Origin: a virus
Lineage: Duplodnaviria > Caudoviricetes
Strand: one strand, 5' to 3'
IMG/VR virus record: IMGVR_UViG_3300008262_000247
Coordinates: 1 to 56,059 of that record
Length of the DNA stretch: 56,059 nucleotides
Below, in pieces: positions 6,747-32,313 of the stretch. A program made the translations under genes and the position numbers. The notes beneath the pieces were generated by a model. The model saw only the letters and a program-made list of their open reading frames with translations. It had not been told where the DNA came from and made no database searches. The first letter of the stretch is position 1. The number at the start of each line of letters is the position of its first letter.

Positions 6747-7133
6747 ATGGGAAGAAATTTACCAAATATAGATAATGGGAGAGATTTAATAAAAAGGCAA
6801 AGACTTGCTTTTAAAGAATTTGTTTTAAATGTAAATAAAGATACTTTTATTTATAGTTTTAATCCTGATACTTTGATTTTGGATGAAACTAATACGTTTT
6901 TTACACTTACTTTAATAAATAAAAAAATTATTATAGATAGACTTCAAGTAGATGATTTTAAAGATTACATTGATGTATATTTATTTGGAGTAAAACAGCC
7001 TCAAGATAGATATAGTGTTGAGGTTAGTGGAAATAATATTATTGTTACGTTTTTTGTAGATATCACACGAGTTCCTACTGATGTATTACCTACAAATTTT
7101 GAAATAAAAGGAAAAATATCTGAAATACTATAA
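6747..7133 (+). CDS. Hypothetical protein, similar domain to 6389..6745
   Basis: IDVYLFGVKQ..RY....IIVTF...FEIKG. Tightly coupled to both neighbours. Confidence 0.55.
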   Translation: MGRNLPNIDNGRDLIKRQRLAFKEFVLNVNKDTFIYSFNPDTLILDETNTFFTLTLINKKIIIDRLQVDDFKDYIDVYLFGVKQPQDRYSVEVSGNNIIVTFFVDITRVPTDVLPTNFEIKGKISEIL

Positions 7134-8206
7134 TGGCAAGACTGATACCTCGTAAGCAAATAGAAGAACAACAAGATATAAGTGGTTCACTTAATATTAG
7201 ACAAGATGTTAATATCGGTAATAATGCCATTATTTCTGGTTCACTTTTTGTTTCTAAAAGTTTCTTTTTTGGAAATGATGAAAACGATAAAAGTGAAATA
7301 ACAGGTTCAGTATTTCTGACTGGTTCTCTTACAATAGATGGAGACTTATTAGTAAGTGCACCGGATACAATTCTATCATTTACCGCATCGTTTTCATCTG
7401 AATCACTAGATACACAACGATACGCCGGAATTTTAGCAAAAGATTTTGGTGCAAACCAACCTACATTGTATGTATCTTCAACCGATGGAGATGATACAAA
7501 TGATGGTAGAACTATTCAATATCCACTTCGTACAATTAAAAGAGCAGCTGCATTGGCATCTCCTGGATACGATGGTAGATATGGTTTTGATACAGGTTCA
7601 ATATATAATGGATATGTAATTAAAGTACAGGCTGGAACGTATTTAGAGGATAACCCTGTTATTCTTCCTAAGAATACAACTATTTGGGGTGCAGGTTTGC
7701 GTATTACTAAGATTAACGCTAAAAATCCAGAACAAGACCTTTTTTGGGTAAACTCTGGATGTTATATTGCAGAGGTAACAATGGGTGGTTTAAGATTGTG
7801 GCCAAGTGAGAAAGAGCCGCAAAGAGGATTTGGTGTAGCTTTTCAACCAGGTGCATTTATTACAACTTCACCATACGTTCAGAACTGTTCACAAATTTCT
7901 AACCAAGAGAATTCATTCACCGAACTTTACGAAGAAATTCCTCCAGGCGGTGGTGGTCTTTATGTTAATGGTGATGTGATAGATCCTGATTCTCCGTTGG
8001 CTTCAATGGTATTGGATGCTTATACGCAGATTTCTCCAAATGGTGTGGGGTGTTTGGTAAATGGTAGAGGATTCATTCAGTTGGTATCTTTCTTTAATAA
8101 CTTCTCATATTACGCAATTAGAGTAAACAATGGTGGACATGCTACACTAAACAACTCAAACATTTCGTTTGGTTTGTATGGTATGTATGCTAGTGGTGGC
8201 ATCTAA
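7133..8206 (+). CDS. Giant virion protein, N-terminal part with pectin-lyase-like beta-helix
   Basis: LYVSSTDGDDTNDGRT...PLRTIKRAA, IKVQAGTYLE.NP, SPYVQNCS, YTQI...GVG, QLVSFF are typical of phage beta-helix proteins. The frame breaks at ~8197. Confidence 0.7.
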   Translation: MARLIPRKQIEEQQDISGSLNIRQDVNIGNNAIISGSLFVSKSFFFGNDENDKSEITGSVFLTGSLTIDGDLLVSAPDTILSFTASFSSESLDTQRYAGILAKDFGANQPTLYVSSTDGDDTNDGRTIQYPLRTIKRAAALASPGYDGRYGFDTGSIYNGYVIKVQAGTYLEDNPVILPKNTTIWGAGLRITKINAKNPEQDLFWVNSGCYIAEVTMGGLRLWPSEKEPQRGFGVAFQPGAFITTSPYVQNCSQISNQENSFTELYEEIPPGGGGLYVNGDVIDPDSPLASMVLDAYTQISPNGVGCLVNGRGFIQLVSFFNNFSYYAIRVNNGGHATLNNSNISFGLYGMYASGGI

Positions 8207-11200
8207 TATTGAAGAAATTGTTTCTGATTTTAATTTAATAAGTGCTATTGTAGATAGTGGAACTTCTAATTTTCCAACTCTATTGGCCAGAAGTTCTAAT
8301 AAAGGATATGGATTTGATTCGCCGTATAATATATTAGGAACTGAACAAATTACAGCATCTTATTCGGCATCAAATGAAGATTTATCACAAATAAGTTCTT
8401 CGTTTGGAGTAACTCTTGGAATATTTGCAGATGGTACTGGTTCATATAGTTTCACTACAAATACTAATAGTGGAGTAAAAACTACAAATCAAACACCAAT
8501 AACTGCAACAATACCGGCAACTGGTTTTATTAGTTCAAGTATATCTTCATCTTTTAGTACAATTATTTCTATACTTAAAAGCGGATTAACTGCAACACCT
8601 AGTTTAGTTACAAATTTAAGTGCAAGTATTATAGCAACTGATACACCATTTAGTTCAAGTGGAATATCTTCATCACTTTCAGTAATAAACAATGTAAGTG
8701 CAAGTTTAAGTATAGTTTATAATATAGTTGCAAATGGTACTGGAAGTAATACATTATCTATACCTGTAAATCATCAACAAAATTTCACAGTAGTAAATAG
8801 TGGCAGTTCTGCATATACATTTAATGGATTGGGTAATAATCCAACATTAACTTTATTTAGAGGTGAAACTTATAAATTTTATATAAGTGCTTCTGAAGCA
8901 ATTGGTGGCATAGATTATCCTTTCTGGATAAGAACACAACAGGTAGAAGGAATTGATAAAATTTATGATTATAACAAAGGAGTAATAAATAATGGTGATA
9001 GTGTAGGTAATATTACATTTAAAGTTCCATACGATGCACCAAATACACTTTATTATGTTGCGAGAAATAATAAAAATTTGGGTGGAAAAATTAATATAGT
9101 AAACAATTCTGCAACACCTATAAATTTAATAGCATCAACACTAACATATCCACCAACAGTATATTCGTCATCAATAGCAAGTGATAGTACCGATAAGATA
9201 AATGCATACGATTTAATTTTAAATAATAAAAAATTTATTCAAGATGAAACAATAGCATATCTTTCTTCTTCTTGGAGTGATTTTTCTTATGATGAAACAA
9301 CTTGTCGCAGAGATATTGGCTACATTATTGATGGTGTAGCAAAAGACCTTTTATACGGTGGTAATGAAGAATCAATAAGAAGTGGATTATTTTATTATCA
9401 ATACCCATCGGAAGCAACTACAACTCAATTATCACCAACACTTACTGCTATAAAATACTTTAGTAGATTAATTGAAAAAATATTAAAAAATCAAAACTTT
9501 GTTGAACCAAATATTGATAGAGAGTCAGCATGGGATTGTATTTTAAATAATAGACAATTCATTCAAAACGAAACTATTGCATATCTAAGTTCTTCGTGGA
9601 GTACATTTGAATATAACGAAGAAAAGTGTAAAAGAGATGTTGGATATATTTTAGATGCGGTAGCTACCGATATTAAATACGAAGGCAATGAAAGAAGTAT
9701 TGAAGCTGGTAGATTTTATTATTTATATCCATCTCAAGCAACCGGTTCACAATTAGTACAAACTATTGATGGTATCAAATATGCAGCTGGATTGGTTAAA
9801 AATTTAATTGTAAATAAAACATTTGTAACGGCATCTCAAACCACACAAGCGGCTTATTCATTAATAAGAAATAATAAATCGTTAGTACAAGATGAAACTA
9901 TACAATTTATCAATGTTGCGTATCCTACTTTGGAATATAATCAAGCTAAATGCCGTAGGGATGTTGGATATATTTTAGATGGTGTGGCAACTGACCTATT
10001 ATATGGTGGTAATGAAAGAAGTGTAGCTAGTGGTAGATTCTATTATGATTTTCCTTCAATTGCAACTTCTACGCAAAAAAGAGAAACTGCAGGTGGTATA
10101 AGATACGCAAAGATTATTACAGAATACATTGTTCAAAATATAATTTTAGATACACCTAGAATTATTGCAAATGATGAGAAAGGTATAAAGATTTCGGCTT
10201 TAACAAATATTACATCTTCTTATAGTGGAAGTTTAAATGAACAAGTTTCAATTAGTTCTTCTTTTAATATAGTTGAGGGTATTATTAAAAAAGGTGTTGA
10301 CTCAATTAAAGCAATTGTGGCAAAAAATACCGATTCAAATTGGTCATTAAATAATCCTTTAAAAGTTTCTTTAAATAATCAAATAACGAATTCATATGTA
10401 ACACCGGATGAGGTTAATCGTATTGGTGATAATTTTGATATTGTAACATCCATAATAAATAATGGAACAGGTTCATTACCTATATTAACATCGTCTGTAT
10501 CAGGATTATATAAAGTATCTGATATAGAACAAATATCTGCAACATCTGCAACAAATGCCGAAACTGCAAGTATAAGTTCTTCATTTGCGAATATCATTAA
10601 TATAATAAAAAATGGAACTGGTTCTTTACAACCATTCACATCTTCGGTTAATGATAATATTAAAGCAACCGCAACAAATTATTCTCAATTAATAGGTGGG
10701 AATTCTACATATAGTTCTAGTATTAGTGCATCAATGAAAGTAATTACTGATGTGTTGCAAAATGGATTATCATCTCTACCGGTTTTGGTTAATAATTCAA
10801 CAACCGGTTCTTTGATTAAAGTTGGTAATGTATCGCAAGTAACAACATCATCATTAGATACAAATCTTTCTGCATCATTGTTTGTTTCTCGTTCAATATC
10901 AATTGTAGTTGATATTTTAAGAACTGGAAATCTTGATGTGGCTAAAACTCCATATGTAACTCAATCTTTGGTATCCGATAAACAATCTTTGGCAAGTTCT
11001 CATATTGTTGCAAATTTGGATTTTATTAAAGAAGAAACTATTGCGTATCTTTCTTCTTCTTGGAGTGGATTTGATTATAATGAAGAAAAATGCAGAAGAG
11101 ATGTTGGATTAATTATAAGTGGTGCGGCACAAGACCTTTATTGGGGTAATATTTCAGCATCAATTGTTAATGGGCAATATTATTTTGAATATCCATCACA

Positions 11201-14200
11201 AGCGACAGGTTCACAATTACAACAAACTATTGATGGTATTATATACGCGAGTAATGTTGCACAAAAAGTAATTCAAGGTATAGAATATCAACAATTGACC
11301 GGTAGTTTAGCGAGTGCTTCTTTAGCATTAAAAAATAACAAAGGATTTATTATAGATGAAACCATAGCATATATGAGTTCATCTTGGGGTTCATTTGATT
11401 ATAACGAAACAACGTGCCGTAGAGATTTAAATTACATTATTGATTCGGTTAGAACTGATTTAGTATATGGTGGTAATCAAAGAACTAGATTATCTGCTGA
11501 ATATTATTTCTTATATCCATCACAGGCAACTGGTTCTCAACTTACACAAACTTTAGATGCTGTAAATTATGCAAGTAGAATAGCACAAAAAGTTGTAGTT
11601 GGACAAAACTTTATTGCAGCCAATACTAATAAATTAAATTTACCATCTGTAGCGGTATTGGCAGCAGCGGAATTAGTAAGAGCGGATATACCATTTATAC
11701 AACAAAATGTAATTGATTATACAAACGATACCTATCCAAAATTAAATTATAATCAGGCTAAATGTTTCAGAGATGTTAGATTTATTACCGATGCGGTAAT
11801 TACTGATTTAGTATATGGTGGTAATGAAAGAACTATTGAAGCTGGAACATTCTATTATCTATACCCATCGCAGGCAACTGATGACCAATTAGATGAAACA
11901 ATTGATGCAATTAATTTTGGTAGAGATTTAACTAAATTGGTTGCAATAGGTGGACTTGAAGTTGAAAGAAGTTTTGATGTAATTTCAAAAATTATAGCGA
12001 GTGGAAGTAATGGATACCCATCAACAATTATAAAAAATACTGAAAGTGCAATAAAAGCAACAAATATTAATCAAACTACATCATCTAATGTTGTAATAGA
12101 ATCTGATAAATTATTAGTATCTTCTTCATTTTCTAATATTATTAATATAATAGCAAATGGCACTGGGTCTATACCAACAATAGTTTCATCTTCATTTAAA
12201 GGAATACTCTTTAGCACCGGTTCACAAACAACATCATCAATAACACCAAATAATACTGAAATTAATAAAGTTAATTCTTCATTTGATGTTGTGACAAATA
12301 TAATAGCAAATGGTACTGGTTCAATTCCAACATTAATAACAAATGCAACAGGTTCAATAAAAAGAACAAACACTTTACAATTTACTACAACCGCATCTAT
12401 TTCTCAAGCAAATATAAACTTGTTCAAATCATCTATTGATATTGTTTTAGATATTGTAGAAAATGGTACAGGTTCAATTCCTTCTTTAGTAAAAAATACC
12501 GATGGATTAATAAAAGTTACAAATGCCGTACAAACAGTTGCAACTGGTTCTACATCTAGATCTGTAATAAACTCTATTACTTCTAGTTTTGATACTGTTA
12601 TTAATGTAATAAGTAATGGAACTGGTTCAATACCTTCTTTGGTAACGAATACGGTAAATAATATAAAAAGGACATTAGAAACACAATATATAGGAACTGG
12701 TTCGGCAACAAACGCCGAATCACAAATTATATCTGCATCAATTGGTATAGTTTCAAATATCGTATCAAATGGAACAGGAAGTTTGCCAGTAGTTATTCAA
12801 TATACATCTGCATCTACAAATACTAATGTAATAACTGCATATAATATTCTTAAAAACAATATTACATTTATACAAGAAGAAACAATTGCATATCTTTCTT
12901 CTTCTTGGAGTGGATTTGTTTATGATGAAGAAAAATGTAAGAGAGATGTTGGATTTATTTTAAGTGGTTCAGCAGAAGATTTATTGTGGAATTCAAACTC
13001 TGCATCAATTGTAAATGGTAAGTTCTATTATGAATATCCATCACAAGCTACCGTAGGAAATGATGGTGATACTGGTGGACAATTAAATCAAACATTAGAA
13101 GGAATTGAATATGCTAGCCGTTTGGCACAAAAAGTGGTTTTAAATACTTTATTTGTAACACAATCTACTGAAATAACTAATGCATATAATTTAATACGAA
13201 ATAATAAATCATTTATTCAAAGTGAATCTATTTCATACATAAGTTCTTCTTGGAGTACACATACATATAACCAACTAAGTTGTAGTAGAGATATTTCTTA
13301 TATTATAGATGCTGTTACAACCGATATATACTATGGTGGTAATGAAAGAGCATCTAAAGCTGGTTTATATTATTTCTTATATCCATCTGAAGCAACTGGT
13401 TCTCAATTAGATGAAACTGTAACCGGAATAAATTACGCTAAAAATCTTTCAAATAGAATATTAAAAGGCGGTTTATTACAATCAGTTACTAATAATAAAC
13501 TTCAGGCTAAAGAGTTAATATTCAATAACAAACAATTTATAGCAAATGAAGTAATTGCATATGTTTCTGCTAGTTGGAATGGATTTGTTTACAACGAGGA
13601 AACTTGTAAAAGAGATGTTGGTTATATTTTAGATGCAGCCATAACTGATTTAGTATATGGTGGTAATGAAAGAAGTATTGAAGCTGGTAAATTTTATTAT
13701 TTATATCCATCCGAAGCAACTACAACTCAATTAGGTCCAACTTTAAGTGGTATTAAGCACGCAAAAGGAATGAGTGAGAATGTAATGAAGAATTTAACTT
13801 ATTATACTTCTTCCGTTTCTGCTCAAACTGCATATGATTTGTTAGTTCAAAATAAACAACTTATACAAAACGAAACAATAGCGTTTGTAAGTTCTTCTTG
13901 GAGTTTCTTCAACTACAACGAAGCAAGTTGTAGTAGAGATACTGGCTACATTGTAGATGCGGTAGCAACTGATATTCTTTATGGTGGAAACGAAAGAGTA
14001 AGAGAGGCAGGAGAATACTATTACTTATATCCTTCATTAGCAACTGTTGATGGAGATGGGGATGCAGCTGGACAATTAGGACAAACTTTGGATGGTATTA
14101 ATTACGCTAAAGGTATTGCTAAAAAGATTGTATCAAATCAATTATTACAAACCGCAAGTATTTCAGAATTAACTGCTTGGACATTGTTAAGACAAAACAA

Positions 14201-19649: not shown

Positions 19650-19667
19650 AAAAGAAAATAAAAACAA

Positions 19668-20582
19668 ATGGCACAAGTATTCGTACCGTTAAACCGATTT
19701 CAGTCAGTAATTACAAATTTGACAGGAGAACCAGATGAAGTATATGTAGTACCTGCAGGGGTATCTACAATTATGCTTTCAATGCAAATTACTAATACTG
19801 GCTTACAAACTCATCCGGTAACTATATTAATTAATTCAAATAATAATTTACCAGTACCTAATTTTAGTAATGTTTATAGTGGAAGTACATTTATAAGTGC
19901 ATCTACTGATATTGCGTATTTAAGTGGAAGCTTTTCAAGCGCATCCGCTCTTTTAAATCTTAATAGAAATTTTATAAAATCAGAAGTTACTTCATACATA
20001 CAGTTTTTAAATAATCAATCGGAAGAACCATTTGGATATTCTGCTTCTTTTTATGAAACTAATTTATTAAGAGATGTGGATGCTATTATTTATGATATTA
20101 AAAATAATACAACAATAAGAACGAATAAAGCTGCGAAAGCGTATTACGATAAAAATGGAGTAAGTTTAATTCCAACTGGACAAATAACAGCTTCGTTAAA
20201 TACAGTTTCATATGCAAATACACTCGCTAAACAAATTATAAAAAATCAATCGGTAACAGGTTCAGTTTCCGTTTCTAGATTATATCAAACCGCGGTTACG
20301 CAATCAATTAATACCGATTATTCGGTATCTGATGAGTTATTAAGTGGTTCTACTTATTTAATTGATGCTTTGTATAATATAATAAAAACAAATATAGAAG
20401 ATCCTGATTTAGAAGCACAACCAATTGTTGAATTGATAAAAAACGTTGAAATTCCAACTGGAGATTCGTTATCTCCTGTGGTAGCCGGAAAATTGGTAAT
20501 GGAAGAAGGATATAGTTTATATTTTTCTGGCTCTACTGAATTGAAAGTAATACTTTCTATTCTTGAAAGTGCTAACGAATAA
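19668..20582 (+). CDS. Virion protein: small beta domain (paralog of 32632) with an inserted Cys-less copy of the helical repeat
   Basis: N- and C-termini align by eye with 32632..32964. The middle reads LLNLNRNFIKSEVTSYI...LLRDVDAIIYDI...AAKAYY...QITASL..VSYA. Confidence 0.65.
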   Translation: MAQVFVPLNRFQSVITNLTGEPDEVYVVPAGVSTIMLSMQITNTGLQTHPVTILINSNNNLPVPNFSNVYSGSTFISASTDIAYLSGSFSSASALLNLNRNFIKSEVTSYIQFLNNQSEEPFGYSASFYETNLLRDVDAIIYDIKNNTTIRTNKAAKAYYDKNGVSLIPTGQITASLNTVSYANTLAKQIIKNQSVTGSVSVSRLYQTAVTQSINTDYSVSDELLSGSTYLIDALYNIIKTNIEDPDLEAQPIVELIKNVEIPTGDSLSPVVAGKLVMEEGYSLYFSGSTELKVILSILESANE

Positions 20583-20605
20583 TTTGAGGAATACTTCCTT
20601 ATTTT

Positions 20606-20614
20606 ATATTTATA
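20606..20614 (+). promoter_or_regulatory. ATATTTATA putative late promoter
   Basis: Recurring motif upstream of ATG 20634. Confidence 0.6.
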
Positions 20615-20633
20615 ACAAAGCTTGTAGAATCGG

Positions 20634-23600
20634 ATGGCCAAAAGTAACTTATTAAGTAATAGGGTTAAACCCGTTAGTCCCAAAAATGTATCTGCAGATA
20701 GATATCAGTTTTTAGATATATCTCAGGCCGAACCAAATTTAGGTGTCCCTAATTTTAGTGCATCCTTATCAGGTTCACCTGCTATCGTAGTTTCAGATGA
20801 CCAGGGTAATAGAGGGTTTGTAAGAAGTTTAGATTTAGATAGAGTAACCGGACAATTTACTGGTTCTTTCACCGGTAGTGCGGAATCCCTAAGCGGTAGT
20901 TTTACAGGTTCTTATACTGGTTCATTCTCTGGTTCATATTTTGGAGATGGTAAAGGATTATTTAATTTACCTGCTGCAACATTTATAGCGAGTGGGTCAT
21001 CAACTGCATCTTTTATTGATAATGACTTAGATATAAATACAAATACTAAGATTCATGGCAATTTATATGTTGATGATGCAATATATGCAGAACAAATAAT
21101 TGTAACATATGTTTCATCTTCTGTAATTTATTCATCTGGTTCAAATATTTTTGGTGACGAAGATTCCGATATACAACAATTCACCGGTTCGGTAAGAATA
21201 CAAAGTGAATTGATTGGTAACAATATTACAGGTTCATCGTTCACTGGTTCATTTACTGGTTCTTTCTTTGGAGACGGTGCGAATTTATTTAATTTACCAC
21301 AAGCTACAAAATTAGCAAGTGGTAGTGTTACTGCGTCTGTATCACCAAACGAAGGATTTAAAGTAATATCAATTGATAGTGGTTCATCATTTACTGGAAG
21401 TTTATTTGTAAGTGGAAACGTTACAATACCTTCTGGTTCTGGATATTTTAGTGGTAGCGGTGAAGGATTATTTAATATCCCTCTTTCTGCACTTAATATT
21501 GATTCTTTAGTAGCTACTAGAATTGCAAGTGGTAGTGTAACTGCATCTGTTTCTCCAACTGAAGGATTTAAAGTACAATCATTACAAAGTGGTTCTCAAT
21601 TTACTGGCTCTGTTTTTGTAAGTGGTAGTTTAATTGCAATATATAGTGGTTCATTTAGTGGTAGTGGTGATAAATTATTTAACATTCCAAGATCTGCACT
21701 CACTCCTGATGCATTAGAATCTGACCGTATAGCAAGTGGTAGTGTAACTGCATCGGTATCTAATGCAGGATTTGTAGTAAATTCAGCCAATTCCGGTTCG
21801 TTCTTTACAGGTAGTGTAAGAATTAGTGGTAGTTTAACAGCAAATGGTGTTAGTGTAAGAAGTGGTTCATTTTTTAGCGGTAGTGGTAGAGACCTTTTTG
21901 ATATTCCACGTTCTGCTTTAACTCCTGATGCGTTAGATTCTACAAGAATTGCAACAGGTTCAGTAACAGCATCTGTTTCACCTGAATTTGGATTTAGAGT
22001 ACAATCCACGATAAGTGGTTCTCAATTTACTGGTTCTTTATTGGTAAGTGGAAATGTTGAATTATATACCGGTTCATTTAGTGGTAGTGGTAAAAATCTT
22101 AGAGAAATTCCTAAATCGGCAATTTCTGATTTAGATACATCATTAATATTCTCTGGTTCTGCAACAGCATCAATTAATCCTGTTAAAGGATTTAATGTAA
22201 ACATATTTTCCCAGTTTACCGGAAGTATGGTTGTATCAGCATCTAATTTTATAATACCAACTTCATCTTTAGATAAAACATTTTATGTAACTAATAATGG
22301 AGCATCTGCATATACGTTTAGTGGTGCAGCTAGTGGTTCAAATCCAACTATAACTTTAGTAAGAGGTGTTACATATACATTTGATGTAAATGCAACTGGA
22401 CATCCTTTTTATATTAAAACGGTACAAACTACTGGACCTGCTTCTGCATATAATGTGGGTGTAACAAATAACGGTGATGATAGTGGTTTAATAATTTTTG
22501 CTGTACAAAATGATGCACCACCTACTTTATATTATAATTGCCAGTTCCATAGTGAAATGGCGGGTGTTATTAATGTTGTAGATAATATTATAAGACCAAG
22601 TGAAATTAAATTTATAGGTGATACAACTATAAGTGGTTCATTGGCATTGAAGGGAGATGATGTTATTGATAGTGGTTTCCAAGAAGGACAAACTGTTGGT
22701 GCATATATAGATGGAAATATACATTTAAAATCTGGTTCATATTTTAGTGGTAGTGGTAAATACATTTTTGATATATCTTTATCAAATTTAACCGGAGATG
22801 CATTTAGAATTGCAAGTGGTAGTGTTACTGCATCCGTTTCACCAACTCAAGGGTTTAAAGTAGAAGCATTAAATGTAGGAAGTCAGTTTACGGGAAGTGT
22901 AAATATTTCTGGTTCACTTACTGCATCTTTAGGTGTAAATGGATATAAATTTGTTGGTACTGAATTTAGTGGTTCATCATTTAGTGGTTCATTTGAAGGA
23001 GATGGTAGTAGATTAAGAAATGTACCATCGGTAGAATCTGCAAAAATAGTATCTGGTTCAGTAACGGCATCAGTTTCTCCTGTATATGGATTTAAAGTTG
23101 AATCTGCGGAGTTTGGTAGTGAATTTACCGGTAGTATAAAACTAAGTAGTGGTTCATCATTTAGTGGTAGTGGTAGAAATCTTTTTGATATTCCTGAATC
23201 TGCACTTTCATTTGCACCTTATAGAATTGCAAGTGGCAGTGTAACTGCATCAGTCGCTCCAAATAGAGGATTTAGAGTAGAATCTTGGGAGTATGGTTCA
23301 GAATTTACTGGCTCATTGATAGTGAGTGGTACTTTGGGTATAAGAGTTGCATCTGGTTCATCATTTAGTGGTAGTGGTAGAAATCTTTTTGATATACCTC
23401 GTTCTGCGATTTCTGATTTAGATACATCGTTAATATTCTCTGGCTCTGCAACCGCATCTATTTCACCAAATAAAGGATTGCTTGTAAATACAGGTGTAAC
23501 CATTGGTGGTTATCTATTTACAACTGGTTCGGCAACTTTCTATGGTACATCTAGATTTACTTCAGGTGTATCTGCATCTGTATTTAGTGGTAGTGGTGCA

Positions 23601-26600
23601 GGATTGACTGATATTCCATTCTCTGCATTATCTCAAGAATTATTTAGAATTGCGAGCGGTTCGGTAACAGCTTCGGCATTACCAGATAGAGGATTTATTG
23701 TAGAAACTGGAAATTTAGGAGCTAGAATTAGTGGTTCATTATTTGTAAGTGGTGGATATGGTGGTGTTATACAAGCGGCTACCGGTTCTTGGTTTAGTGG
23801 TAGTGGTAGAGGTTTATTTGATATCCCAAGAAATGCATTAACTGAAGACGCATTACTTACAACTGAAATCAAATCAGGTTCGGTAACTGCTTCGGTTGAT
23901 CCTGATAGAGGATTTATTGTAAAATCGGTAGCAAGCGGTTCAGAATTTACTGGTTCTATTGATGTAAGTGGTAGTGTTAGTGTAATTAGTGGTTCTTACT
24001 TTATTGGTGATGGTAGATACCTTTCAAATATTACATTAGCTAATATAGCAATTGATTCAACAAAAATATTTAGTGGTTCTGCAACCGCATCAATTTCACC
24101 TGATGATGGATTTAATATAAACGTACAATCCACTTTGAGTGGTAGTTTGTATGTATATGCAACTGATAGAGAAACACCATCGTATTTAATTGATACCGTA
24201 TTTAATGTTTCAAATGATGGAAGTAGTGCATATACGTTTAGTGGTGCAGCGAATGGTTCAAATCCAATTATAACATTGGTTAGAGGTGTTGAATACACTT
24301 TTAATGTTAATGCTGGTGGACATCCTTTTTATATTAAATTCCAAAATTCAACCGGTACATCAAATATAGTTAGTGGAAGTATTACAAATAATGGTGTTGA
24401 TGTTGGGACATTAACATTTACTCCATATTCTGGTTCACCTGATACATTATTTTATAATTGTCAATACCATTCTTCAATGGCTGGACAAATTAATGTAGTA
24501 GATGCATTAATGTTACCTGCTGAAATTAAATTAGTAGGACCAACCGAAATTACGGGTAGTTTAAATACAACAGGTCCTATATCAGCATCAATGTTTAGTG
24601 GTAGCGGTAGAGGATTATTTGATATTCCTCGTTCTGCATTATCGGAAGAAGTATTCAGAATTGCAAGTGGTAGTGTAACAGCTTCGGTTACTCCAGAAAG
24701 AGGATTTTTAGTTGAATCATTAGAAAGTGGTTCTACCTTTAGCGGTAGTATCTTTATGGCTAGTGGTTCGTTTATCAGTTCATCTGGTAGATTGTTTTTT
24801 GATATACCTCGTTCTGCTCTTACTGAAGATGCGTTAATATCTGCGGAAATTAAATCTGGTTCGGTAACCGCTTCGGTAAGTCCAGTTGATGGATTTAAAG
24901 TATTGACACCATTTACATCTTCAATTGATGAATCTGGTTCATTTAGTACTCAAATAGCATCTCAATTCACCGGTTCAGTATCAATAAGTGGTAGCTTATA
25001 CTTAAATGACCCGAGTGGGGGCTTATTTATAGATTCCGCATCATTTATTTACGCAGAAGGTAGATTCTTAAGAAATATTCCTCGTTCATCTTTAACAGAT
25101 GATGCATTAATATCAACTGAAATTAAATCCGGTTCGGTAACTGCTTCTGTTTCTCCGGTTGATGGGTTCAGAGTAATAACTCCATTCACTGGTTCAGAAG
25201 TTGGTTCTCAATTCACTGGCTCAATTGAAGTTAGTGGAAGTATTAGAGCAACCGAATTCATTTATGGTGATGGTAGATATATTACAAATGTACAAGCGGC
25301 TGCAGCTCCATTGATAGCGAGTGGTAGTGCAACCGCATCAGTAGCAAGTGGTGAATCGTTTGTAGTAATAACTGCAAAAACTGGTTCTGCAGTAGGTTCT
25401 CAATTTACTGGATCAGTATCGGTTAGTGGTTCATTAACTGTGACAGATTTCTTCTATGGTGATGGTAGATATATCACAAATGTACAAGCGGCAGCGGCAC
25501 CATTCATTGGTAGTGGTTCTGCAACTGCATCTGTACAAAGTGGTGATACATTTATTGTAACAACTGGTGCAACTGGCTCCGCATATGGTTCCAGATTTAC
25601 TGGCTCTATTGATGTAAGTGGTAGTATAAAGGCATTTAGTTTTATAGGAGATGGTTCTCAACTTACAAACGTACAAGCGGCAGCAGCTCCATTAATTGCA
25701 AGTGGTTCTGCAACTGCATCGGTGCAAAGTGGAGATACGTTTAGAGTTATAACTTCTAAAACTGGCTCTGGCTTAACATATGATTATGGTTCGGAATTTA
25801 CTGGTTCTTTAATTGTAAGTGGTGCAATTTCGGCATCAATATTCATAGGTGATGGTGGTGGTTTATTTAATATCCCACCTGAAGCGATTGAAAATCTTGA
25901 ATTAGATAAAATTAATTCTGGTTCTGCAAGAGCAATAATTGACCCAACAACATTGGATGTAAACGTACCAATTACCGCGGCACTTTATCGTGGAGATGGT
26001 AGTGGATTATTTAATATCCCATTAGAAGCGTTAGAAGATTTACAATTGGATAGAATTCAATCGGGTTCTAAAGAAGCTGTAATCTCTCCAAACAAAGGAT
26101 TGGAAATAAATACATCAGTAAGAATATTTTCAGGCTCTTTATTTGTAAGTGGTGGTATATTTGTAACCGGCTCTGATGTTGTACTTCAATCTGGTAGTAC
26201 GTTTGTGGGTGATGGTAGTGGATTAAGAAATATCAATATTGCTAATTTATCATTTGAAACATTTATATTAAAGAGTGGTTCATTTACTGCATCAATTTCA
26301 CCGGATAAAGGATTTGTAGTTAATACATCTTCTTCAATTTGGGGAACTCTTTATGTTGGTGATAGTATTAAAGTACAAAATGATATTACATCTTCTCATA
26401 GAATACTTGCACCTTTATTTACCGGTTCATTCTTGGGCACATATAATTTCCAAGGAGTAGGACCTACTGCATCTGCAGAATATGATATTTTAAGATTTGA
26501 TGAAACTAGAGGATACTTTGTACCTCAACCTGAAACTTCATTAACTGAAACTGTATCATTTAATAATGTTAGTGATTTAACAATTGTACACAATTTAGGA

Positions 26601-29600
26601 ATTCGTTATCCAGTTGTGCAAGTTTACGCAACCGGTTCGGAAGACCAAATTATACCTGGTACTGTTAAATCAATTGATGAAGATACAATACAAATTAAAT
26701 TCGCAGGATTAACTTCTGGACATGTTGTAATTGGTAGTGGTGGTTCTTTAATCAATGGTACGATACCGGGTGATAGAGTATTTGGTACGGTTTTATCAGC
26801 ATCTTATGCAAGTAAAGCAGCATTAGCTGATGCTGTAACTGGATTTGATTCGGCATCATTATCGGCATTATCTGCATCTTTGGCAAACGCAAATGCATAT
26901 GTGAGAAATGACCAAACTGCATCAATGGCGGTGTTTAGAGCAGTAAGTTCTTCTTACGCATTAACTGCATCTTATGTAGAAAATTTAAGTGGATTAACTT
27001 TAACAGATTATGTAAGAAATGATGTTACTTCTTCAATGACAGTTTTAAGTGCATCTTATGCAGTTTCAACTTCATATGCAGCTTATGCAGCAAATGCGGC
27101 AAATGTTGATACATCTAACTTTGTATTAGCATCACAAACATCATCTATGTTAGTGGGTACTGCTTCATTGGCATTTACTGCGAGTGTAGCATTATTTGCA
27201 CTAAATGCAGCGAACACCGATACCGCATCATTCTTACAAATTAATAAAGACCAAACAATAAATGCTAGTTTATCTATTAGTGGTAGTTTAACTGTTACTG
27301 GTAGTATTACCGCTGTTAGTGATTTAAAAATAAATGCATTACAAAGTGGTTCATCTGAAGATGTAGTTGTTTGGAATAGTGTAACTAAGCGATTAGAAAA
27401 AAGAAATATAGCAGCCGCAGTTGGTTCATCTGGTACTGCAGGTACATCTGGTAAAGATGGCTCCGGTGGTACATCTGGAACAAGTGGCACGAGTGGCACA
27501 TCTGGTAGTGGTGGCACATCTGGAACTTCTGGAACTTCTGGTACTAGTGGACAAGACGGAACATCTGGTTCTTCTGGAAGTTCTGGTACATCTGGTAGTG
27601 GAGGCACATCTGGAACTTCAGGTACATCGGGTACGAGTGGCACGAGTGGCACATCTGGAAGTTCTGGAAGTAGTGGTACATCTGGTTCATCTGGAAGCTC
27701 AGGTTCATCTGGAAGTTCAGGAACAACCGGTTCAAGCGGTACATCTGGTTCATCTGGAAGCTCCGGCTCATCTGGTAGTAGTGGAAGTTCCGGTACATCC
27801 GGGTCATCCGGAAGTTCAGGAAGTTCAGGAACATCTGGTTCATCTGGTTCATCTGGAAGCAGTGGAAGTAGTGGAAGTTCCGGCTCATCTGGAAGCAGTG
27901 GAAGCTCTGGTTCATCTGGTACTACCGGCTCATCTGGAAGTAGTGGTACATCTGGTACATCCGGGTCATCTGGAAGTGGTGGTTCATCTGGTAGTAGTGG
28001 AAGTTCCGGTTCATCTGGAACAAGAGGTTCTGCAGGTTCATCAGGAAGTTCAGGTACATCTGGTTCCTCTGGTTCATCAGGAAGTAGTGGAAGTAGTGGA
28101 AGTTCTGGTTCATCTGGTACCGGTGGAACAGGTGGTTCATCGGGTAGTTCAGGAACTTCAGGAGAAAGTGGTTCTGCAGGTTCATCGGGTTCTTCTGGTT
28201 CATCTGGTACAAGCGGCAGCTCTGGAACATCTGGAACATCAGGTACGAGTGGACAAGCCGGCAGTAGTGGAACATCTGGTTCTTCTGGAACATCTGGTTC
28301 ATCTGGAAGTAGTGGCACATCCGGCACAAGTGGCACGAGTGGCACATCCGGGTCATCTGGTACATCTGGTACATCTGGTTCATCCGGAAAAGATGGTACT
28401 TCTGGTACTTCAGGTTCTTCTGGAAGTAGTGGTACAAGCGGCAGCTCTGGAACATCTGGAACAAGTGGCACGAGCGGCACATCTGGAACATCTGGTTCTT
28501 CTGGTTCATCTGGAAGTAGTGGAAGTTCTGGAACAACTGGTTCATCGGGAACATCAGGAAGCTCTGGTTCATCTGGTACATCTGGTACTGATGGCACATC
28601 TGGTTCATCTGGTACGAGTGGCACATCGGGAACATCTGGTACAACCGGTTCATCGGGAAGTTCTGGTTCATCTGGAACATCTGGTAAAGATGGAACATCC
28701 GGGTCATCTGGAAGTAGTGGAAGTAGTGGCTCATCTGGTACAACGGGAACATCTGGTACAACCGGTTCATCTGGAAGTAGTGGAAGCAGTGGCACATCTG
28801 GTTCCGATGGCACATCCGGAAGTAGTGGAAGTTCTGGTTCATCTGGTACAACTGGTTCATCTGGTACAACCGGTTCATCTGGAAGTAGTGGAAGTTCGGG
28901 AGAAGATGGAACATCTGGTACAAGTGGGTCTGATGGCACATCTGGAACAGGAGGCTCATCGGGTTCTTCTGGTACAACTGGTTCTTCTGGTACAACTGGT
29001 TCATCAGGAAGTTCTGGAACTAGTGGAAAAGATGGCACATCAGGAACTTCAGGAAGTAGTGGTAAAGATGGCACATCCGGTTCATCTGGTACAACCGGGT
29101 CAGCAGGTACTTCTGGTACATCTGGAACAGGTTCATCTGGAACTTCAGGAAGTAGTGGTGAAGACGGTTCATCGGGTACATCAGGTACATCTGGTAGTAA
29201 TGGCACATCCGGTAGCAGCGGAAGTAGCGGCAGCTCTGGTTCATCTGGAACATCTGGTAAAGATGGTACTTACTTTGGTTCATCGGGTTCATCTGGAAAA
29301 GATGGCACTTCGGGAACATCTGGCTCATCTGGAAGCACAGGTAGTGCAGGAACGGCCGGCACATCTGGAACATCTGGTAAAGATGGTACTTACTTTGGTT
29401 CATCAGGTACATCTGGTAAAGAAGGTACTTCGGGTACTTCTGGTTCATCTGGTTCGGCTGGTTCATCTGGAACTTCAGGAACATCTGGAAGTAGTGGTAA
29501 AGATGGTACATTCTTTGGTTCATCAGGTACATCAGGTGCATCTGGAACATCCGGTTCATCTGGAAGTAGTGGTACGAGTGGCAGCTCTGGTTCATCTGGA

Positions 29601-30929
29601 ACATCTGGTAAAGATGGTACATTCTTTGGTTCATCGGGAACTTCAGGAAGTTCTGGAACATCGGGTACATCTGGTAGCGGTGGCTCATCTGGTACAACTG
29701 GTAGTGCGGGCACATCGGGTAGTGGTGGTTCATCCGGAACTTCAGGAACATCTGGTAAAGATGGTACATTCTTTGGTAGTTCTGGTAAGGATGGTACTAA
29801 TGGTAGCGGTGGCACGGCAGGTACATCTGGTTCATCTGGTAGTAGTGGAAGCTCTGGAACATCTGGTTCATCTGGCACATCGGGTAAAGATGGTACTTTA
29901 TTTGGTTCATCGGGTAGTTCAGGAATTTCTGGAACTGCTGGTTCATCTGGTTCTTCTGGACAAAGTGGAAGCTCTGGTACATCTGGCACATCGGGTAAAG
30001 ATGGTACTTTATTTGGCTCATCCGGTTCATCCGGTACAACAGGCTCTTCTGGTTCATCGGGAGTAAGTGGAAGTTCTGGAAGTAGTGGAAGCTCTGGTAC
30101 ATCTGGCACATCGGGTAAAGATGGTACTTTATTTGGAAGTTCTGGAAGTAGTGGAACGAGTGGTGGAATAGGACCTCAGGGTTCGGCAGGTACATCTGGT
30201 TCATCCGGTACATCTGCACCTGGATTTAGTTCGGGTACATCCGGTGCATCGGGTACATCGGGTTCTTCCGGTACATCTTTTTATGGTGTAACTTCTGGTT
30301 CTTCTGGTACATCCGGTGTTAGTGGTTCATCTGGTACATCTGCACCTGGAATAACTTCTGGTACTTCTGGTTTCTCTGGTACTTCTGGTACATCTGCACC
30401 TGGATTTAGTTCCGGTACATCTGGTACAAATGGAGCACCTGGTAGTAGTGGTAGTTCTGGATTTGCATCAATTAGTGGTACAACTGATAATGGTGTGATA
30501 ACTTTAGAAGGTACATCTCCAAATGTAAGAGCTGAAAGTAATTTAACATTTGATGGAACATTATTAAGTATAACTGGTAATCTAACCAATAGTGGATATA
30601 TTACATCAACAACATTCAGAGAAACCTATTCTGATTTGGGAACTGGTGGAAGTGCAACTTTAGACCTTGCAACAGCTAATAACTTCAGAAGACAATTTAA
30701 TGGAGCGGCAACATTAACATTTAGTAATCCACCTGCATCAAACGCATTTGGATTCACATTGAGTGTTGTAAATGCAGGAGCATATTCAATAACATGGCCA
30801 AATAGTGTAGATTGGCCTGGCGGAAGTGCACCAATCCTTACATCAGCTGGAGTAGATGTTCTAACATTCTTTACATTTAATGGTGGTACAACATATTACG
30901 GATTTATTGTAGGAAAAAATATAAGTTAA
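20634..30929 (+). CDS. Giant fibre protein: ~22 SGSVTAS repeats, two cupredoxin-like domains, ~1,000-aa Gly-X-Ser tract and C-terminal domain
   Basis: 3431-aa ORF with directly visible repeats. The C-terminal ITWPNSVDWPGGSAP.LT..GVDVLTF...GGTTYYG motif is typical of phage fibre tips. Confidence 0.88.
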   Translation: MAKSNLLSNRVKPVSPKNVSADRYQFLDISQAEPNLGVPNFSASLSGSPAIVVSDDQGNRGFVRSLDLDRVTGQFTGSFTGSAESLSGSFTGSYTGSFSGSYFGDGKGLFNLPAATFIASGSSTASFIDNDLDINTNTKIHGNLYVDDAIYAEQIIVTYVSSSVIYSSGSNIFGDEDSDIQQFTGSVRIQSELIGNNITGSSFTGSFTGSFFGDGANLFNLPQATKLASGSVTASVSPNEGFKVISIDSGSSFTGSLFVSGNVTIPSGSGYFSGSGEGLFNIPLSALNIDSLVATRIASGSVTASVSPTEGFKVQSLQSGSQFTGSVFVSGSLIAIYSGSFSGSGDKLFNIPRSALTPDALESDRIASGSVTASVSNAGFVVNSANSGSFFTGSVRISGSLTANGVSVRSGSFFSGSGRDLFDIPRSALTPDALDSTRIATGSVTASVSPEFGFRVQSTISGSQFTGSLLVSGNVELYTGSFSGSGKNLREIPKSAISDLDTSLIFSGSATASINPVKGFNVNIFSQFTGSMVVSASNFIIPTSSLDKTFYVTNNGASAYTFSGAASGSNPTITLVRGVTYTFDVNATGHPFYIKTVQTTGPASAYNVGVTNNGDDSGLIIFAVQNDAPPTLYYNCQFHSEMAGVINVVDNIIRPSEIKFIGDTTISGSLALKGDDVIDSGFQEGQTVGAYIDGNIHLKSGSYFSGSGKYIFDISLSNLTGDAFRIASGSVTASVSPTQGFKVEALNVGSQFTGSVNISGSLTASLGVNGYKFVGTEFSGSSFSGSFEGDGSRLRNVPSVESAKIVSGSVTASVSPVYGFKVESAEFGSEFTGSIKLSSGSSFSGSGRNLFDIPESALSFAPYRIASGSVTASVAPNRGFRVESWEYGSEFTGSLIVSGTLGIRVASGSSFSGSGRNLFDIPRSAISDLDTSLIFSGSATASISPNKGLLVNTGVTIGGYLFTTGSATFYGTSRFTSGVSASVFSGSGAGLTDIPFSALSQELFRIASGSVTASALPDRGFIVETGNLGARISGSLFVSGGYGGVIQAATGSWFSGSGRGLFDIPRNALTEDALLTTEIKSGSVTASVDPDRGFIVKSVASGSEFTGSIDVSGSVSVISGSYFIGDGRYLSNITLANIAIDSTKIFSGSATASISPDDGFNINVQSTLSGSLYVYATDRETPSYLIDTVFNVSNDGSSAYTFSGAANGSNPIITLVRGVEYTFNVNAGGHPFYIKFQNSTGTSNIVSGSITNNGVDVGTLTFTPYSGSPDTLFYNCQYHSSMAGQINVVDALMLPAEIKLVGPTEITGSLNTTGPISASMFSGSGRGLFDIPRSALSEEVFRIASGSVTASVTPERGFLVESLESGSTFSGSIFMASGSFISSSGRLFFDIPRSALTEDALISAEIKSGSVTASVSPVDGFKVLTPFTSSIDESGSFSTQIASQFTGSVSISGSLYLNDPSGGLFIDSASFIYAEGRFLRNIPRSSLTDDALISTEIKSGSVTASVSPVDGFRVITPFTGSEVGSQFTGSIEVSGSIRATEFIYGDGRYITNVQAAAAPLIASGSATASVASGESFVVITAKTGSAVGSQFTGSVSVSGSLTVTDFFYGDGRYITNVQAAAAPFIGSGSATASVQSGDTFIVTTGATGSAYGSRFTGSIDVSGSIKAFSFIGDGSQLTNVQAAAAPLIASGSATASVQSGDTFRVITSKTGSGLTYDYGSEFTGSLIVSGAISASIFIGDGGGLFNIPPEAIENLELDKINSGSARAIIDPTTLDVNVPITAALYRGDGSGLFNIPLEALEDLQLDRIQSGSKEAVISPNKGLEINTSVRIFSGSLFVSGGIFVTGSDVVLQSGSTFVGDGSGLRNINIANLSFETFILKSGSFTASISPDKGFVVNTSSSIWGTLYVGDSIKVQNDITSSHRILAPLFTGSFLGTYNFQGVGPTASAEYDILRFDETRGYFVPQPETSLTETVSFNNVSDLTIVHNLGIRYPVVQVYATGSEDQIIPGTVKSIDEDTIQIKFAGLTSGHVVIGSGGSLINGTIPGDRVFGTVLSASYASKAALADAVTGFDSASLSALSASLANANAYVRNDQTASMAVFRAVSSSYALTASYVENLSGLTLTDYVRNDVTSSMTVLSASYAVSTSYAAYAANAANVDTSNFVLASQTSSMLVGTASLAFTASVALFALNAANTDTASFLQINKDQTINASLSISGSLTVTGSITAVSDLKINALQSGSSEDVVVWNSVTKRLEKRNIAAAVGSSGTAGTSGKDGSGGTSGTSGTSGTSGSGGTSGTSGTSGTSGQDGTSGSSGSSGTSGSGGTSGTSGTSGTSGTSGTSGSSGSSGTSGSSGSSGSSGSSGTTGSSGTSGSSGSSGSSGSSGSSGTSGSSGSSGSSGTSGSSGSSGSSGSSGSSGSSGSSGSSGSSGTTGSSGSSGTSGTSGSSGSGGSSGSSGSSGSSGTRGSAGSSGSSGTSGSSGSSGSSGSSGSSGSSGTGGTGGSSGSSGTSGESGSAGSSGSSGSSGTSGSSGTSGTSGTSGQAGSSGTSGSSGTSGSSGSSGTSGTSGTSGTSGSSGTSGTSGSSGKDGTSGTSGSSGSSGTSGSSGTSGTSGTSGTSGTSGSSGSSGSSGSSGTTGSSGTSGSSGSSGTSGTDGTSGSSGTSGTSGTSGTTGSSGSSGSSGTSGKDGTSGSSGSSGSSGSSGTTGTSGTTGSSGSSGSSGTSGSDGTSGSSGSSGSSGTTGSSGTTGSSGSSGSSGEDGTSGTSGSDGTSGTGGSSGSSGTTGSSGTTGSSGSSGTSGKDGTSGTSGSSGKDGTSGSSGTTGSAGTSGTSGTGSSGTSGSSGEDGSSGTSGTSGSNGTSGSSGSSGSSGSSGTSGKDGTYFGSSGSSGKDGTSGTSGSSGSTGSAGTAGTSGTSGKDGTYFGSSGTSGKEGTSGTSGSSGSAGSSGTSGTSGSSGKDGTFFGSSGTSGASGTSGSSGSSGTSGSSGSSGTSGKDGTFFGSSGTSGSSGTSGTSGSGGSSGTTGSAGTSGSGGSSGTSGTSGKDGTFFGSSGKDGTNGSGGTAGTSGSSGSSGSSGTSGSSGTSGKDGTLFGSSGSSGISGTAGSSGSSGQSGSSGTSGTSGKDGTLFGSSGSSGTTGSSGSSGVSGSSGSSGSSGTSGTSGKDGTLFGSSGSSGTSGGIGPQGSAGTSGSSGTSAPGFSSGTSGASGTSGSSGTSFYGVTSGSSGTSGVSGSSGTSAPGITSGTSGFSGTSGTSAPGFSSGTSGTNGAPGSSGSSGFASISGTTDNGVITLEGTSPNVRAESNLTFDGTLLSITGNLTNSGYITSTTFRETYSDLGTGGSATLDLATANNFRRQFNGAATLTFSNPPASNAFGFTLSVVNAGAYSITWPNSVDWPGGSAPILTSAGVDVLTFFTFNGGTTYYGFIVGKNIS
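20930..26330 (+). repeat. About 22 repeats of ~60-90 aa (FSGSGxxLFDIPxSAL...RIASGSVTASVSPxxGFxV...GSxFTGS)
   Basis: Repeated IASGSVTAS/IFSGSATAS/IKSGSVTAS motif throughout the translation. Confidence 0.9.
27420..30460 (+). repeat. Gly-X-Y triplet tract (GSS/GTS), ~1,000 aa
   Basis: Near-continuous GSSGTSGSS. DNA is a degenerate 9-nt repeat (e.g. GGTTCATCT, GGAAGTAGT, GGTACATCT). Confidence 0.97.
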
Positions 30930-31840: not shown

Positions 31841-31847
31841 TAAGATT

Positions 31848-32291
31848 ATGTATTTAAGAATTATAAATAACGAAATAGATTATCCATACTCTTTGCAAAA
31901 ATTGAGAGAAGATAATCCTAATATAAGTTTCCCATCTGAAATGACAGAAAGTTTAATGGGGGAATGGAATATTCATGAAGTTAGACATACTCCAAAACCA
32001 AACGATTATACAAAAAATATTTACGAAGGAACACCAATATTAATAGAGGGTGTTTATTATCAAAATTGGGAAAATACAAACGCAACCGAATCAGAAATAA
32101 ATTTGAGAATAGCTGGAAAGTGGGAAGAAGTTAGACAAACTAGAAATGAATTACTATTAGAATGTGATTGGACACAATTATCTGATATTCCACAGTCCGT
32201 TAAAGATGAGTGGAGTTCTTATAGACAAGAATTAAGGGATATTACATCACAGAGTAATCCATACAATATTATTTGGCCTAACAAACCCTAA
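31848..32291 (+). CDS. Tail fibre assembly chaperone-like protein
   Basis: VRQTRNELLLECDWTQLSD...WSSYRQELRDIT...IIWPNKP motif. Confidence 0.75.
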   Translation: MYLRIINNEIDYPYSLQKLREDNPNISFPSEMTESLMGEWNIHEVRHTPKPNDYTKNIYEGTPILIEGVYYQNWENTNATESEINLRIAGKWEEVRQTRNELLLECDWTQLSDIPQSVKDEWSSYRQELRDITSQSNPYNIIWPNKP

Positions 32292-32304
32292 AAGGATAAA
32301 AGTT

Positions 32305-32313
32305 ATATTTATA
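32305..32313 (+). promoter_or_regulatory. ATATTTATA putative late promoter
   Basis: Recurring motif upstream of ATG 32339. Confidence 0.6.

Follow-up and report, generated by a model that had tools for sequence, protein, structure and literature searches.

Tandem globin repeats related to phycobiliproteins in giant cyanophage proteins, with a possible bearing on light-dependent adsorption

Relatives of the phycobiliproteins have been known as light antennae and, lately, as small bacterial globins that bind bilins. The antenna proteins (PF00502: phycocyanin, allophycocyanin and phycoerythrin, together with the ApcE domain) bear a C-x-R-D motif on helix E of a globin-like core, and through this motif the bilin is both covalently attached and hydrogen-bonded, according to the available sections of Rockwell et al. 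(2023, PMC10151467). The same sections describe the BBAGs of heterotrophic bacteria and cyanobacteria, single-domain soluble cellular proteins that are distant relatives of the phycobiliproteins and whose genes are linked to those of heme oxygenase and bilin reductase. Of these, BBAG-1 and BBAG-3 possess the motif and need no lyase to attach bilins, while the BBAG-2 proteins, from the lineage to which the photoglobins also belong, are without it and bind biliverdin. Photocobilins and photoglobins are globin-B12 light sensors, fused to a B12 domain and not structural. Those sections mention no phage globins, and a phycobiliprotein relative in a virus particle is not reported in the parts consulted of the literature on cyanophages, bilin binding and tail-fibre domains. 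I describe here a gene for what may be such a protein. It lies in a stretch of DNA of 56,059 nt, called the window in what follows, which is the whole of the IMG/VR virus record IMGVR_UViG_3300008262_000247 (estimated to be 27% complete). The open reading frame (ORF) at 8169-19649 encodes 22 tandem repeats, and my reading is that they belong to a new branch of the bilin-binding globins, tandem, virion-borne, large, and restricted to cyanophages.

The repeats, about 108 amino acids (aa) each, are arranged in blocks of 3, 3, 6, 3 and 7 (Table 1). All 22 contain C-x-R-D, and the cysteines of the motif make up 22 of the 26 in the protein. A search of 1.84 billion proteins shows the family to be large, with 1300 cluster representatives (50% identity, E ≤ 0.001), among which up to 36 tandem copies occur in proteins of up to 6,382 aa; members are found in such model phages as S-PM2 and P-HM2. 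Conservation was counted on 1079 full-length repeats from the best 150 of the 1300 representatives, and the three residues of the motif are the most conserved columns of all (C 96%, R 96%, D 98%), with 1014 repeats retaining all three. A second figure, 876 of 901 repeats from 67 IMG/VR loci, is biased, because those loci were found by a pattern that itself contains the motif. One copy in the window departs from the rule. The next ORF, 19668-20582, contains at residues 89-201 (DNA 19932-20270) a single repeat, matching the repeat profile with E 1e-18, in which Y-E-T-N stands in place of C-x-R-D, and the protein has no cysteine at all. An earlier note on this DNA, made from the sequence alone, had described just such a cysteine-less copy, and so it has turned out. 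Proteins of about 290 aa like this one come after the giant gene at other loci.

What might the motif be for? One answer is that it has nothing to do with chromophores: the repeats would be only building blocks, a rigid fibre spacer that arose from a bilin-binding ancestor and binds no chromophore, with C-x-R-D retained because it helps in folding, in interdomain contacts or in cross-linking, whether by disulfides or otherwise. The motif-less copy in ORF 19668-20582 speaks for this idea, since the fold evidently survives without the motif, and the repeats do sit within structural proteins of 2,000-7,000 aa. A purely structural role, however, does not predict that the residues which in phycobiliproteins touch the chromophore should be the most conserved of the 1079 repeats despite identities of 12-19%, and a lone cysteine per repeat leaves no obvious disulfide partner within the repeat. 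I regard the building-block explanation as a real possibility, though a doubtful one, and return to it below as further evidence bears on it.

The repeats are very probably homologous to phycobiliproteins or other bilin-binding globins, and very probably share their fold. The earlier note had called them phycobiliprotein-like, a description borne out by profiles run against PDB sequences, by Pfam, by hhalign and by the predicted fold. Three of the repeats, compared with 177,635 distinct PDB sequences, gave 3 matches at E ≤ 10, all 3 to phycobiliproteins and aligned at the bilin-attachment residue Cys84. A profile of the 22 window repeats matched 4 PDB sequences, every one a phycocyanin alpha chain (E 0.46-0.76). 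With a more diverse profile, built from 85 repeats of which 84 were taken from the best 150 cluster representatives, the best E went from 0.46 to 0.0056, and 33 of the 34 matches were phycobiliproteins, the remaining one being a pilin; the cysteine of the motif again fell on Cys84. In the reverse direction, PF00502 (Phycobilisome protein) is the Pfam family matched by most repeats, 17 of the 85 at E ≤ 1, with 3 for the next family. Finally, hhalign placed the 85 repeats against a template made of 139 unique phycocyanin-type proteins out of 80 cyanobacterial loci, with a probability of 93.3% (P 2.7e-7, 91 columns) and with the motif on Cys84-Arg86-Asp87. The reversed template gave P 0.29, and 20 column-shuffled templates gave P 0.054 or worse.

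There is evidence on the other side. None of the 85 repeats reaches the curated cut-off of PF00502 (best E 0.0035), and the whole protein of ORF 8169-19649 has no PF00502 match at E ≤ 0.1. When repeat residues 33-46 are masked, the hhalign P becomes 0.15, and when only residues 36-41 are masked, the register is unchanged but P is 0.024. Because masking it weakens the alignment in this way, the sequence signal resides mainly in the helix that carries the motif. Beyond that helix there is little sequence likeness to phycobiliproteins, a point in favor of building blocks. One might go further and suppose the likeness to be convergent or an artefact, a short motif that fell by chance upon a helical repeat, with AlphaFold drawn to a fold familiar to it. 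It is true that significance comes largely from about 14 residues, and that the structural comparisons made with Foldseek are, by their E-values alone, not significant (0.3-1.3 for the repeat model, none ≤ 0.001).

It is too much to ask of chance, however, that it should account for the rest. AlphaFold2, run on the 85-row alignment, produced a model of five helices (predicted local distance difference test, pLDDT, 93.3; predicted template modelling score, pTM, 0.86). The best 50 matches by Foldseek in the PDB are all phycobiliproteins, and beta-type chains fit best, with a query TM-score (TMq) of 0.72-0.76 and a root-mean-square deviation (rmsd) of 3.0-3.5; examples are 2c7j_B (TMq 0.72, rmsd 3.0) and 5aqd_M (TMq 0.76). 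A second aligner, independent of Foldseek, was run against 48,161 representative chains, and its top 10 are all bilin-binding globins (Z 9.2-11.8, rmsd 2.2-3.4). First comes a far-red allophycocyanin (Z 11.8, rmsd 2.8, 100 residues), with a second allophycocyanin-type chain, ApcE domains and phycoerythrins also among the ten, and third is the bilin-binding domain of a photocobilin (8j2y_B, Z 11.4, rmsd 2.6, 98 residues). Heme globins, RsbR and colicins come next, at Z 5.5-9. A caution applies to these scores as well, in that Z 11-12 is within the range that the aligner flags as possible for helical bundles. The same fold is seen (TMq 0.75-0.89) in structures that third parties predicted, from other alignments, for the giant proteins of named Synechococcus phages. 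HMMER against the PDB, the reverse Pfam search, hhalign with its shuffled controls and two structure aligners thus agree, the motif falls on the corresponding helix without a shift of register, and models made by others concur. Convergence or artefact seems to me very improbable.

How, then, do the phage repeats compare with their relatives? Residues 1-101 of the model align to residues 37-145 of a phycobiliprotein chain, that is, to helices A, B, E, F and G, so the core and the position of the motif on helix E are shared. A phycobiliprotein, however, has 160-180 aa where the phage repeat has about 108, and the repeat is without the X-Y hairpin and without helix H. Since these parts are missing, neither the alpha-beta pairing nor the ring assembly of phycobiliproteins is to be expected of the repeats, and their absence is also what the building-block explanation would have. 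The phage repeats are tandemly fused within large phage-encoded proteins, whereas phycobiliproteins are encoded by the cell. BBAGs, too, differ in being single-domain, soluble and cellular, and the phage repeats are likened to them by description only, as given in the available sections of PMC10151467. Photocobilins do show that a bilin-globin fold is able to serve in light sensing.

The distribution of the repeat points to cyanobacterial hosts. Among 50,697 phage records, 135 contain it, and by organism name these are 116 Synechococcus phages, 12 labelled Cyanophage, 6 Prochlorococcus phages and 1 marine virus. A scan of the genomes of 185,579 species with two narrow repeat patterns matched 19 stretches, none of them a relative, which is weak evidence of absence from cellular genomes. 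Small stand-alone homologues were considered as well: 30 unnamed proteins of 57-202 aa came to light, mostly single-member clusters on short contigs, and they are read as fragments of giant proteins. The records of S-PM2, S-RSM4, S-MbCM7 and P-HM2 and the PHROG families of their giant proteins do not name the repeats as globins or relatives of phycobiliproteins, and Pfam and PHROGs have no label for the repeat.

Where genes are better annotated, they place the repeats near the baseplate. In P-HM2 the repeats are inside the 4454-aa baseplate wedge protein gp7, and in S-PM2, S-MbCM7 and S-RSM4 they are in a protein of 3,700-4,500 aa encoded just upstream of gp12-like short-fibre genes. These gp7-like baseplate or 'short tail fiber' giants of T4-like cyanophages have the same repeats as ORF 8169-19649, although the phage of the window is not a close T4-like cyanophage: the nearest relative of its sheath (44%) is that of Microcystis phage Mel-JY01, which has no repeats. 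The best explanation is that the phage is a myovirus with known cyanophages among its relations, that the region codes for its appendage proteins, and that these are put together from modules almost confined to cyanophages. The earlier note had suggested a collar or whisker appendage because the genes lie directly after neck genes. The genes upstream are indeed neck-like, but weakly: the match of ORF 5331-6392 to the T4 gp15 family (E 8.9e-5) does not reach the cut-off, and that of ORF 3705-4871 is to a head-tail adaptor PHROG (2.5e-12). Pfam and PHROG scans of the window proteins found no member of the fibritin (T4 wac) family. With repeats in gp7 of P-HM2, with others adjoining gp12-like genes, and with the cupredoxin module (see below) in a gp9-type connector gene, the collar gives way to the baseplate as the more likely location, judged by gene content. 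Both chromophore binding and virion location are inferred, the latter from annotation and gene context, and this must be counted against the idea of a pigmented particle.

Some further observations were made around these genes. In S-SSM4 (NC_020875.1, ~48.3-50.5 kb) and ACG-2014d (NC_026923.1, ~58.8-60.7 kb) the open frames that hold the repeats run to 6,935 and 6,820 aa, and I have seen few phage proteins as large. In S-PM2 and S-MbCM7 the giant repeat gene has genes for 2-oxoglutarate (2OG)-Fe(II) oxygenases directly next to it, and S-MbCM7 has more of them amid its fibre genes; such enzymes may modify fibre proteins. In S-RSM4 the neighbor is an HNH endonuclease, and the sole 2OG oxygenase-like gene of the stretch lies some 9 kb upstream. 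For S-PM2, the RefSeq record (NC_006820.1, 165928-177267) has 16 tRNA features within the coding sequence of the 3,779-aa 'short tail fiber', which looks like a problem of annotation coordinates.

The phenotype on which all this may bear is light-dependent adsorption. In the available portion of Liu et al. (2019, PMC6628666), P-HM1 and P-HM2 fail to adsorb without light, P-SSM2 adsorbs in the dark at a reduced level, and for P-SSP7 and P-GSP1 both adsorption and replication go on in darkness. The light dependence shown by S-PM2 is said there not to rely on host photosynthesis, and the suspected cause is light sensitivity of host receptors or of phage tail fibres. No published light/dark adsorption phenotypes beyond those in that paper were found in the literature. 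The repeat profile has 9 matches in S-PM2 and 5 each in P-HM2 and P-HM1, whereas P-SSM2, P-GSP1 and P-SSP7 have none. Presence of the repeats therefore agrees with reported light-dependent as against dark adsorption in six phages of six, which lends indirect support to light sensing, one of the roles that the earlier note had suggested; on two others, photoprotection and the hijacking of TonB-dependent uptake, the results say nothing either way. The weight of this is lessened by the fact that the six represent about four independent lineages and that two of the three dark-adsorbers are podoviruses.

I propose that each repeat would take up a bilin inside the infected cyanobacterium. The bilin might come from the host, or it might be made by heme oxygenase and bilin reductase encoded by the phage, and its attachment might be self-catalysed, as in the BBAGs, or aided by host lyases or by phage CpeT. 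The resulting virion would carry a pigmented appendage, and a light-driven change in that appendage would permit adsorption, accounting for the light dependence of S-PM2, P-HM1 and P-HM2. Taken as a whole, with bilin loading included, the explanation I favor is drawn from sequence comparison and modelled structures and seems to me evenly balanced between true and false, the binding of bilin being by itself about as finely poised. The particular use of the bilin is a different matter. Light-gated adsorption is the most likely use, and still it is a tentative one that I would call somewhat unlikely. The same hesitation attaches to the statement in its full form, that some cyanophages carry a photoreceptor of their own, namely tens of bilin-loaded globin domains in a baseplate or fibre appendage that light alters so as to allow adsorption. 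Purified cyanophage particles are not known to have been reported as colored, which counts against the proposal.

An alternative view is that bilin is bound but not for the sensing of light. It could protect the particle against light or oxidants, make the fold more stable, or influence the pigment metabolism of the host while particles are being assembled. Whatever speaks for bilin binding serves this view equally well, CXRD BBAGs are reported to be photoinactive or weakly fluorescent (available sections of PMC10151467), and light effects may have other causes, since P-SSM2 has no repeats and yet adsorbs less in the dark (available portion of PMC6628666). What the alternative leaves aside is the agreement, six of six, between the repeats and strict light-dependent adsorption, and the position of the P-HM2 repeats in gp7. 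In T4, gp7 is part of the portion of the baseplate that changes shape at infection. I judge a bilin without a sensing role to be unlikely.

Were the repeats a photoreceptor, they would explain how the adsorption of cyanophages can depend on light without needing host photosynthesis, in the sense of the available portion of PMC6628666. They would also give the phage bilin genes ho1, pebS, pcyA and cpeT a target within the virion. If the repeats carry bilins, both adsorption in light only and the purpose of phage cpeT and bilin genes become testable at the bench with existing strains, and a short self-contained bilin-binding domain might be of interest to makers of fluorescent tags.

Do phages with repeats also have the means to make and attach bilins? 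Fifteen viral records with repeats were searched, among which 5 have a completeness of 90% or more. In 4 of the 15, which are 4 of the 5 near-complete ones, there is a bilin reductase with an adjacent heme oxygenase, an arrangement to be compared with the genetic linkage of BBAGs to genes of these two kinds. CpeT is present in 2 of the 15 and in 1 of the near-complete 5. The window, a 27% fragment, has none of the three. For comparison, among 153 cyanophages heme oxygenase is found in 8, PebS in 9, PcyA in 16 and CpeT in 31 (PMC10452541). As an observation on gene order, heme oxygenase and bilin reductase form a pair about 200 bp apart in all four of the IMG/VR relatives G001-G004 (207-274 kb).

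A set of 14 reference phages, not chosen at random and including two same-species pairs, was sorted by the presence of repeats and of CpeT. Both are present in 5 (S-PM2, S-RSM4, S-MbCM7, P-HM1 and P-HM2), repeats without CpeT in 2 (S-SSM4 and ACG-2014d), neither in 7 (P-SSM2, P-SSM5, Bellamy, P-TIM68, Mel-JY01, P-GSP1 and P-SSP7), and CpeT without repeats in none, so cpeT occurs in 5/7 of those with repeats and 0/7 of those without. In S-PM2, S-MbCM7 and S-RSM4, cpeT is 1-2 kb upstream of the giant gene and on the same strand. If the repeats were only building blocks, their restriction to phages of bilin-making hosts, the pattern of cpeT and the pattern of phenotypes would all have to be coincidence.

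Several facts weigh against tying the repeats to bilin metabolism. CpeT is missing from 4 of the 5 near-complete relatives and from the repeat-bearing S-SSM4 and ACG-2014d, and for this reason CpeT was rejected as a universal partner of the repeats. One relative, 96% complete, has neither heme oxygenase nor bilin reductase nor CpeT, and the lack of lyase or bilin genes from several repeat-bearing phages is what the building-block explanation would lead one to expect. P-SSM2, which I take to have a full bilin pathway, has no repeats, so phage bilin synthesis is not tied to the repeat proteins. Lastly, the co-occurrence with cpeT is of limited weight, because cpeT is found in 12 of 16 cyanomyoviruses (Sullivan et al. 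2010, PMC3037559), where its role is called unresolved.

The giant gene is followed, after ORF 19668-20582, by a fibre gene with a second kind of module, and the earlier note had joined the two, supposing a pigment-binding array coupled to an electron-carrier-like fibre. ORF 20634-30929 consists of repeats of about 65 aa, two cupredoxin domains, G-x-y collagen repeats (Pfam Collagen PF01391, 2.5e-100) and a C-terminal globular domain, and it matches PHROG tail-fibre families. Both cupredoxin domains have the form GHPF...C-x2-H-x2-M, and their two cysteines are the only ones among 3431 residues. Residues 1209-1290 match PF25489 (At5g54830-like domain) with 32.0 bits against a cut-off of 27 (E 1.4e-7). 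A model from a 69-row alignment is a Greek-key beta-sandwich of eight strands (pLDDT 94.8), for which Foldseek gives 38 cupredoxin-type matches at E ≤ 0.001; it returns rusticyanin (7.9e-5) and AcoP, both at E of about 1e-4, and also nitrite reductase, CueO, pseudoazurin and plastocyanin. The cupredoxin-like domains that the earlier note had seen are therefore there, two copies with a full ligand set and a fold that agrees, as is the degenerate copy it had seen in ORF 8169-19649, in whose alignment the four ligands are replaced (H>Y, C>A, H>N, M>L). The fibre modules, in which the type-1 copper ligands are all intact, probably bind metal. Among 106 unique homologous domains, 77 keep H/C/H/M and 29 are without at least one ligand, 27 of these without at least two.

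The Greek-key sandwich, the upstream histidine and the C-x2-H-x2-M loop are all shared with type-1 copper cupredoxins such as rusticyanin, AcoP, amicyanin, pseudoazurin and plastocyanin. Those are small soluble electron carriers, whereas the phage domains are embedded twice in a collagen-like fibre of 3431 aa; TMq to known cupredoxins is only about 0.5, and no redox partner is evident outside the cell. An origin from the phage plastocyanin gene petE was considered and is not favored, as the top matches are rusticyanin and AcoP and the loop is C-x2-H-x2-M, a spacing that I take to be that of amicyanin.

Is the cupredoxin module a partner of the globin array? It is found in 347 phage records, podoviruses included, of which 340 are named Synechococcus, Cyanophage or Prochlorococcus, 5 are marine viruses, 1 is an Actinomycetia phage and 1 an uncultured phage. 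S-SSM4, ACG-2014d and P-TIM68 have it in a gene annotated as a gp9-type baseplate wedge/tail-fibre connector. P-HM1 and P-HM2 have both modules, in one case within a single gp7; S-PM2 has globin repeats and no cupredoxin module, and P-SSM2 and P-GSP1 have the cupredoxin module and no globin repeats. An obligate pairing is thus rejected, and the single coupled system of the earlier note is unsupported, because S-PM2, P-SSM2 and P-GSP1 carry one module each and the two prove independent across phages, an outcome that the note itself had named as refuting it. Nor does the cupredoxin module track light dependence, since P-GSP1 and P-SSM2 adsorb in the dark. The module is a separate one that spreads independently and is not an obligate partner of the globin array. 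Along the collagen-like part of the fibre gene, at 27083-30589, there are long ORFs on the minus strand (up to 707 aa) and a peak of GC content (0.49). Both arise from the codons of the G-x-y collagen repeats, and the antisense ORFs are most likely spurious.

The features of the window are collected in Table 1. Its products include a gp23-type capsid protein, a tail sheath, a tail tube and several fibres. The earlier note had spoken of three consecutive genes in this region. The ORFs are where it placed them, but 7133-8206 and 8169-19649 are one gene in one frame in four related contigs (L001, L026, L002 and L010). L001 is otherwise identical to the window, and over window positions 8160 to 8200 the offset between the two goes from -3126 to -2929. 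The 197 nt by which they differ are not a multiple of 3, and the giant gene is therefore split out of frame in the window; the deletion may be a true population variant or an artefact of assembly. Residues 110-355 of ORF 7133-8206 match PHROG tail-fibre and baseplate-wedge families, and ORF 8169-19649 matches PHROGs 4527, 5342, 701 and 18802 (E 1e-59 to 1e-187). The globin blocks of the latter ORF are separated by runs of shorter repeats, each about 50 aa long and marked by the motif N-G-T-G-S.

Table 1. Positions of the features discussed, in window coordinates.
Feature	Position	Strand	Remarks
ORF, 357 aa	7133-8206	+	N-terminal part of giant gene; short fibre-like stretch, then beta-helix-like domain
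197-nt deletion relative to otherwise identical IMG/VR contig L001	8165-8200	+	breaks giant gene into two overlapping ORFs
Giant protein, 3826 aa	8169-19649	+	22 globin repeats in five blocks, degenerate cupredoxin domain, C-terminal domain
Degenerate cupredoxin-like domain in ORF 8169-19649	8766-9140	+	four ligands replaced
Globin repeats 1-3	9195-10163	+	each with C-x-R-D
Globin repeat 2, modelled	9519-9839	+	pLDDT 93.3, phycobiliprotein-like fold
Globin repeats 4-6	10983-11975	+	
Globin repeats 7-12	12828-14840	+	
Globin repeats 13-15	15666-16643	+	
Globin repeats 16-22	16980-19361	+	
ORF, 304 aa	19668-20582	+	one globin repeat without C-x-R-D; no Cys
ORF, 3431 aa	20634-30929	+	collagen-like fibre, two cupredoxin domains
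Cupredoxin domain 1, His/Cys/His/Met ligands	22251-22625	+	model and Foldseek
Cupredoxin domain 2, His/Cys/His/Met ligands	24171-24545	+	alignment; Pfam PF25489
Collagen-like G-x-y region, residues 2264-3194	27423-30215	+	
Tail-fibre assembly-like protein	31848-32291		
Second collagen-like fibre, 2022 aa	32981-39049		
638-aa protein	38956-40872		C-terminus like distal long-tail-fibre subunits

Outside the region of the modules, the gp23-type major capsid gene is seemingly split as well, ORF 77-1126 matching the first part of the profile and ORF 1165-1554 a later part; a frameshift, an intervening element or an error of assembly could be the cause. Downstream of the cupredoxin-bearing fibre gene, further fibre genes occupy 30941-40872.

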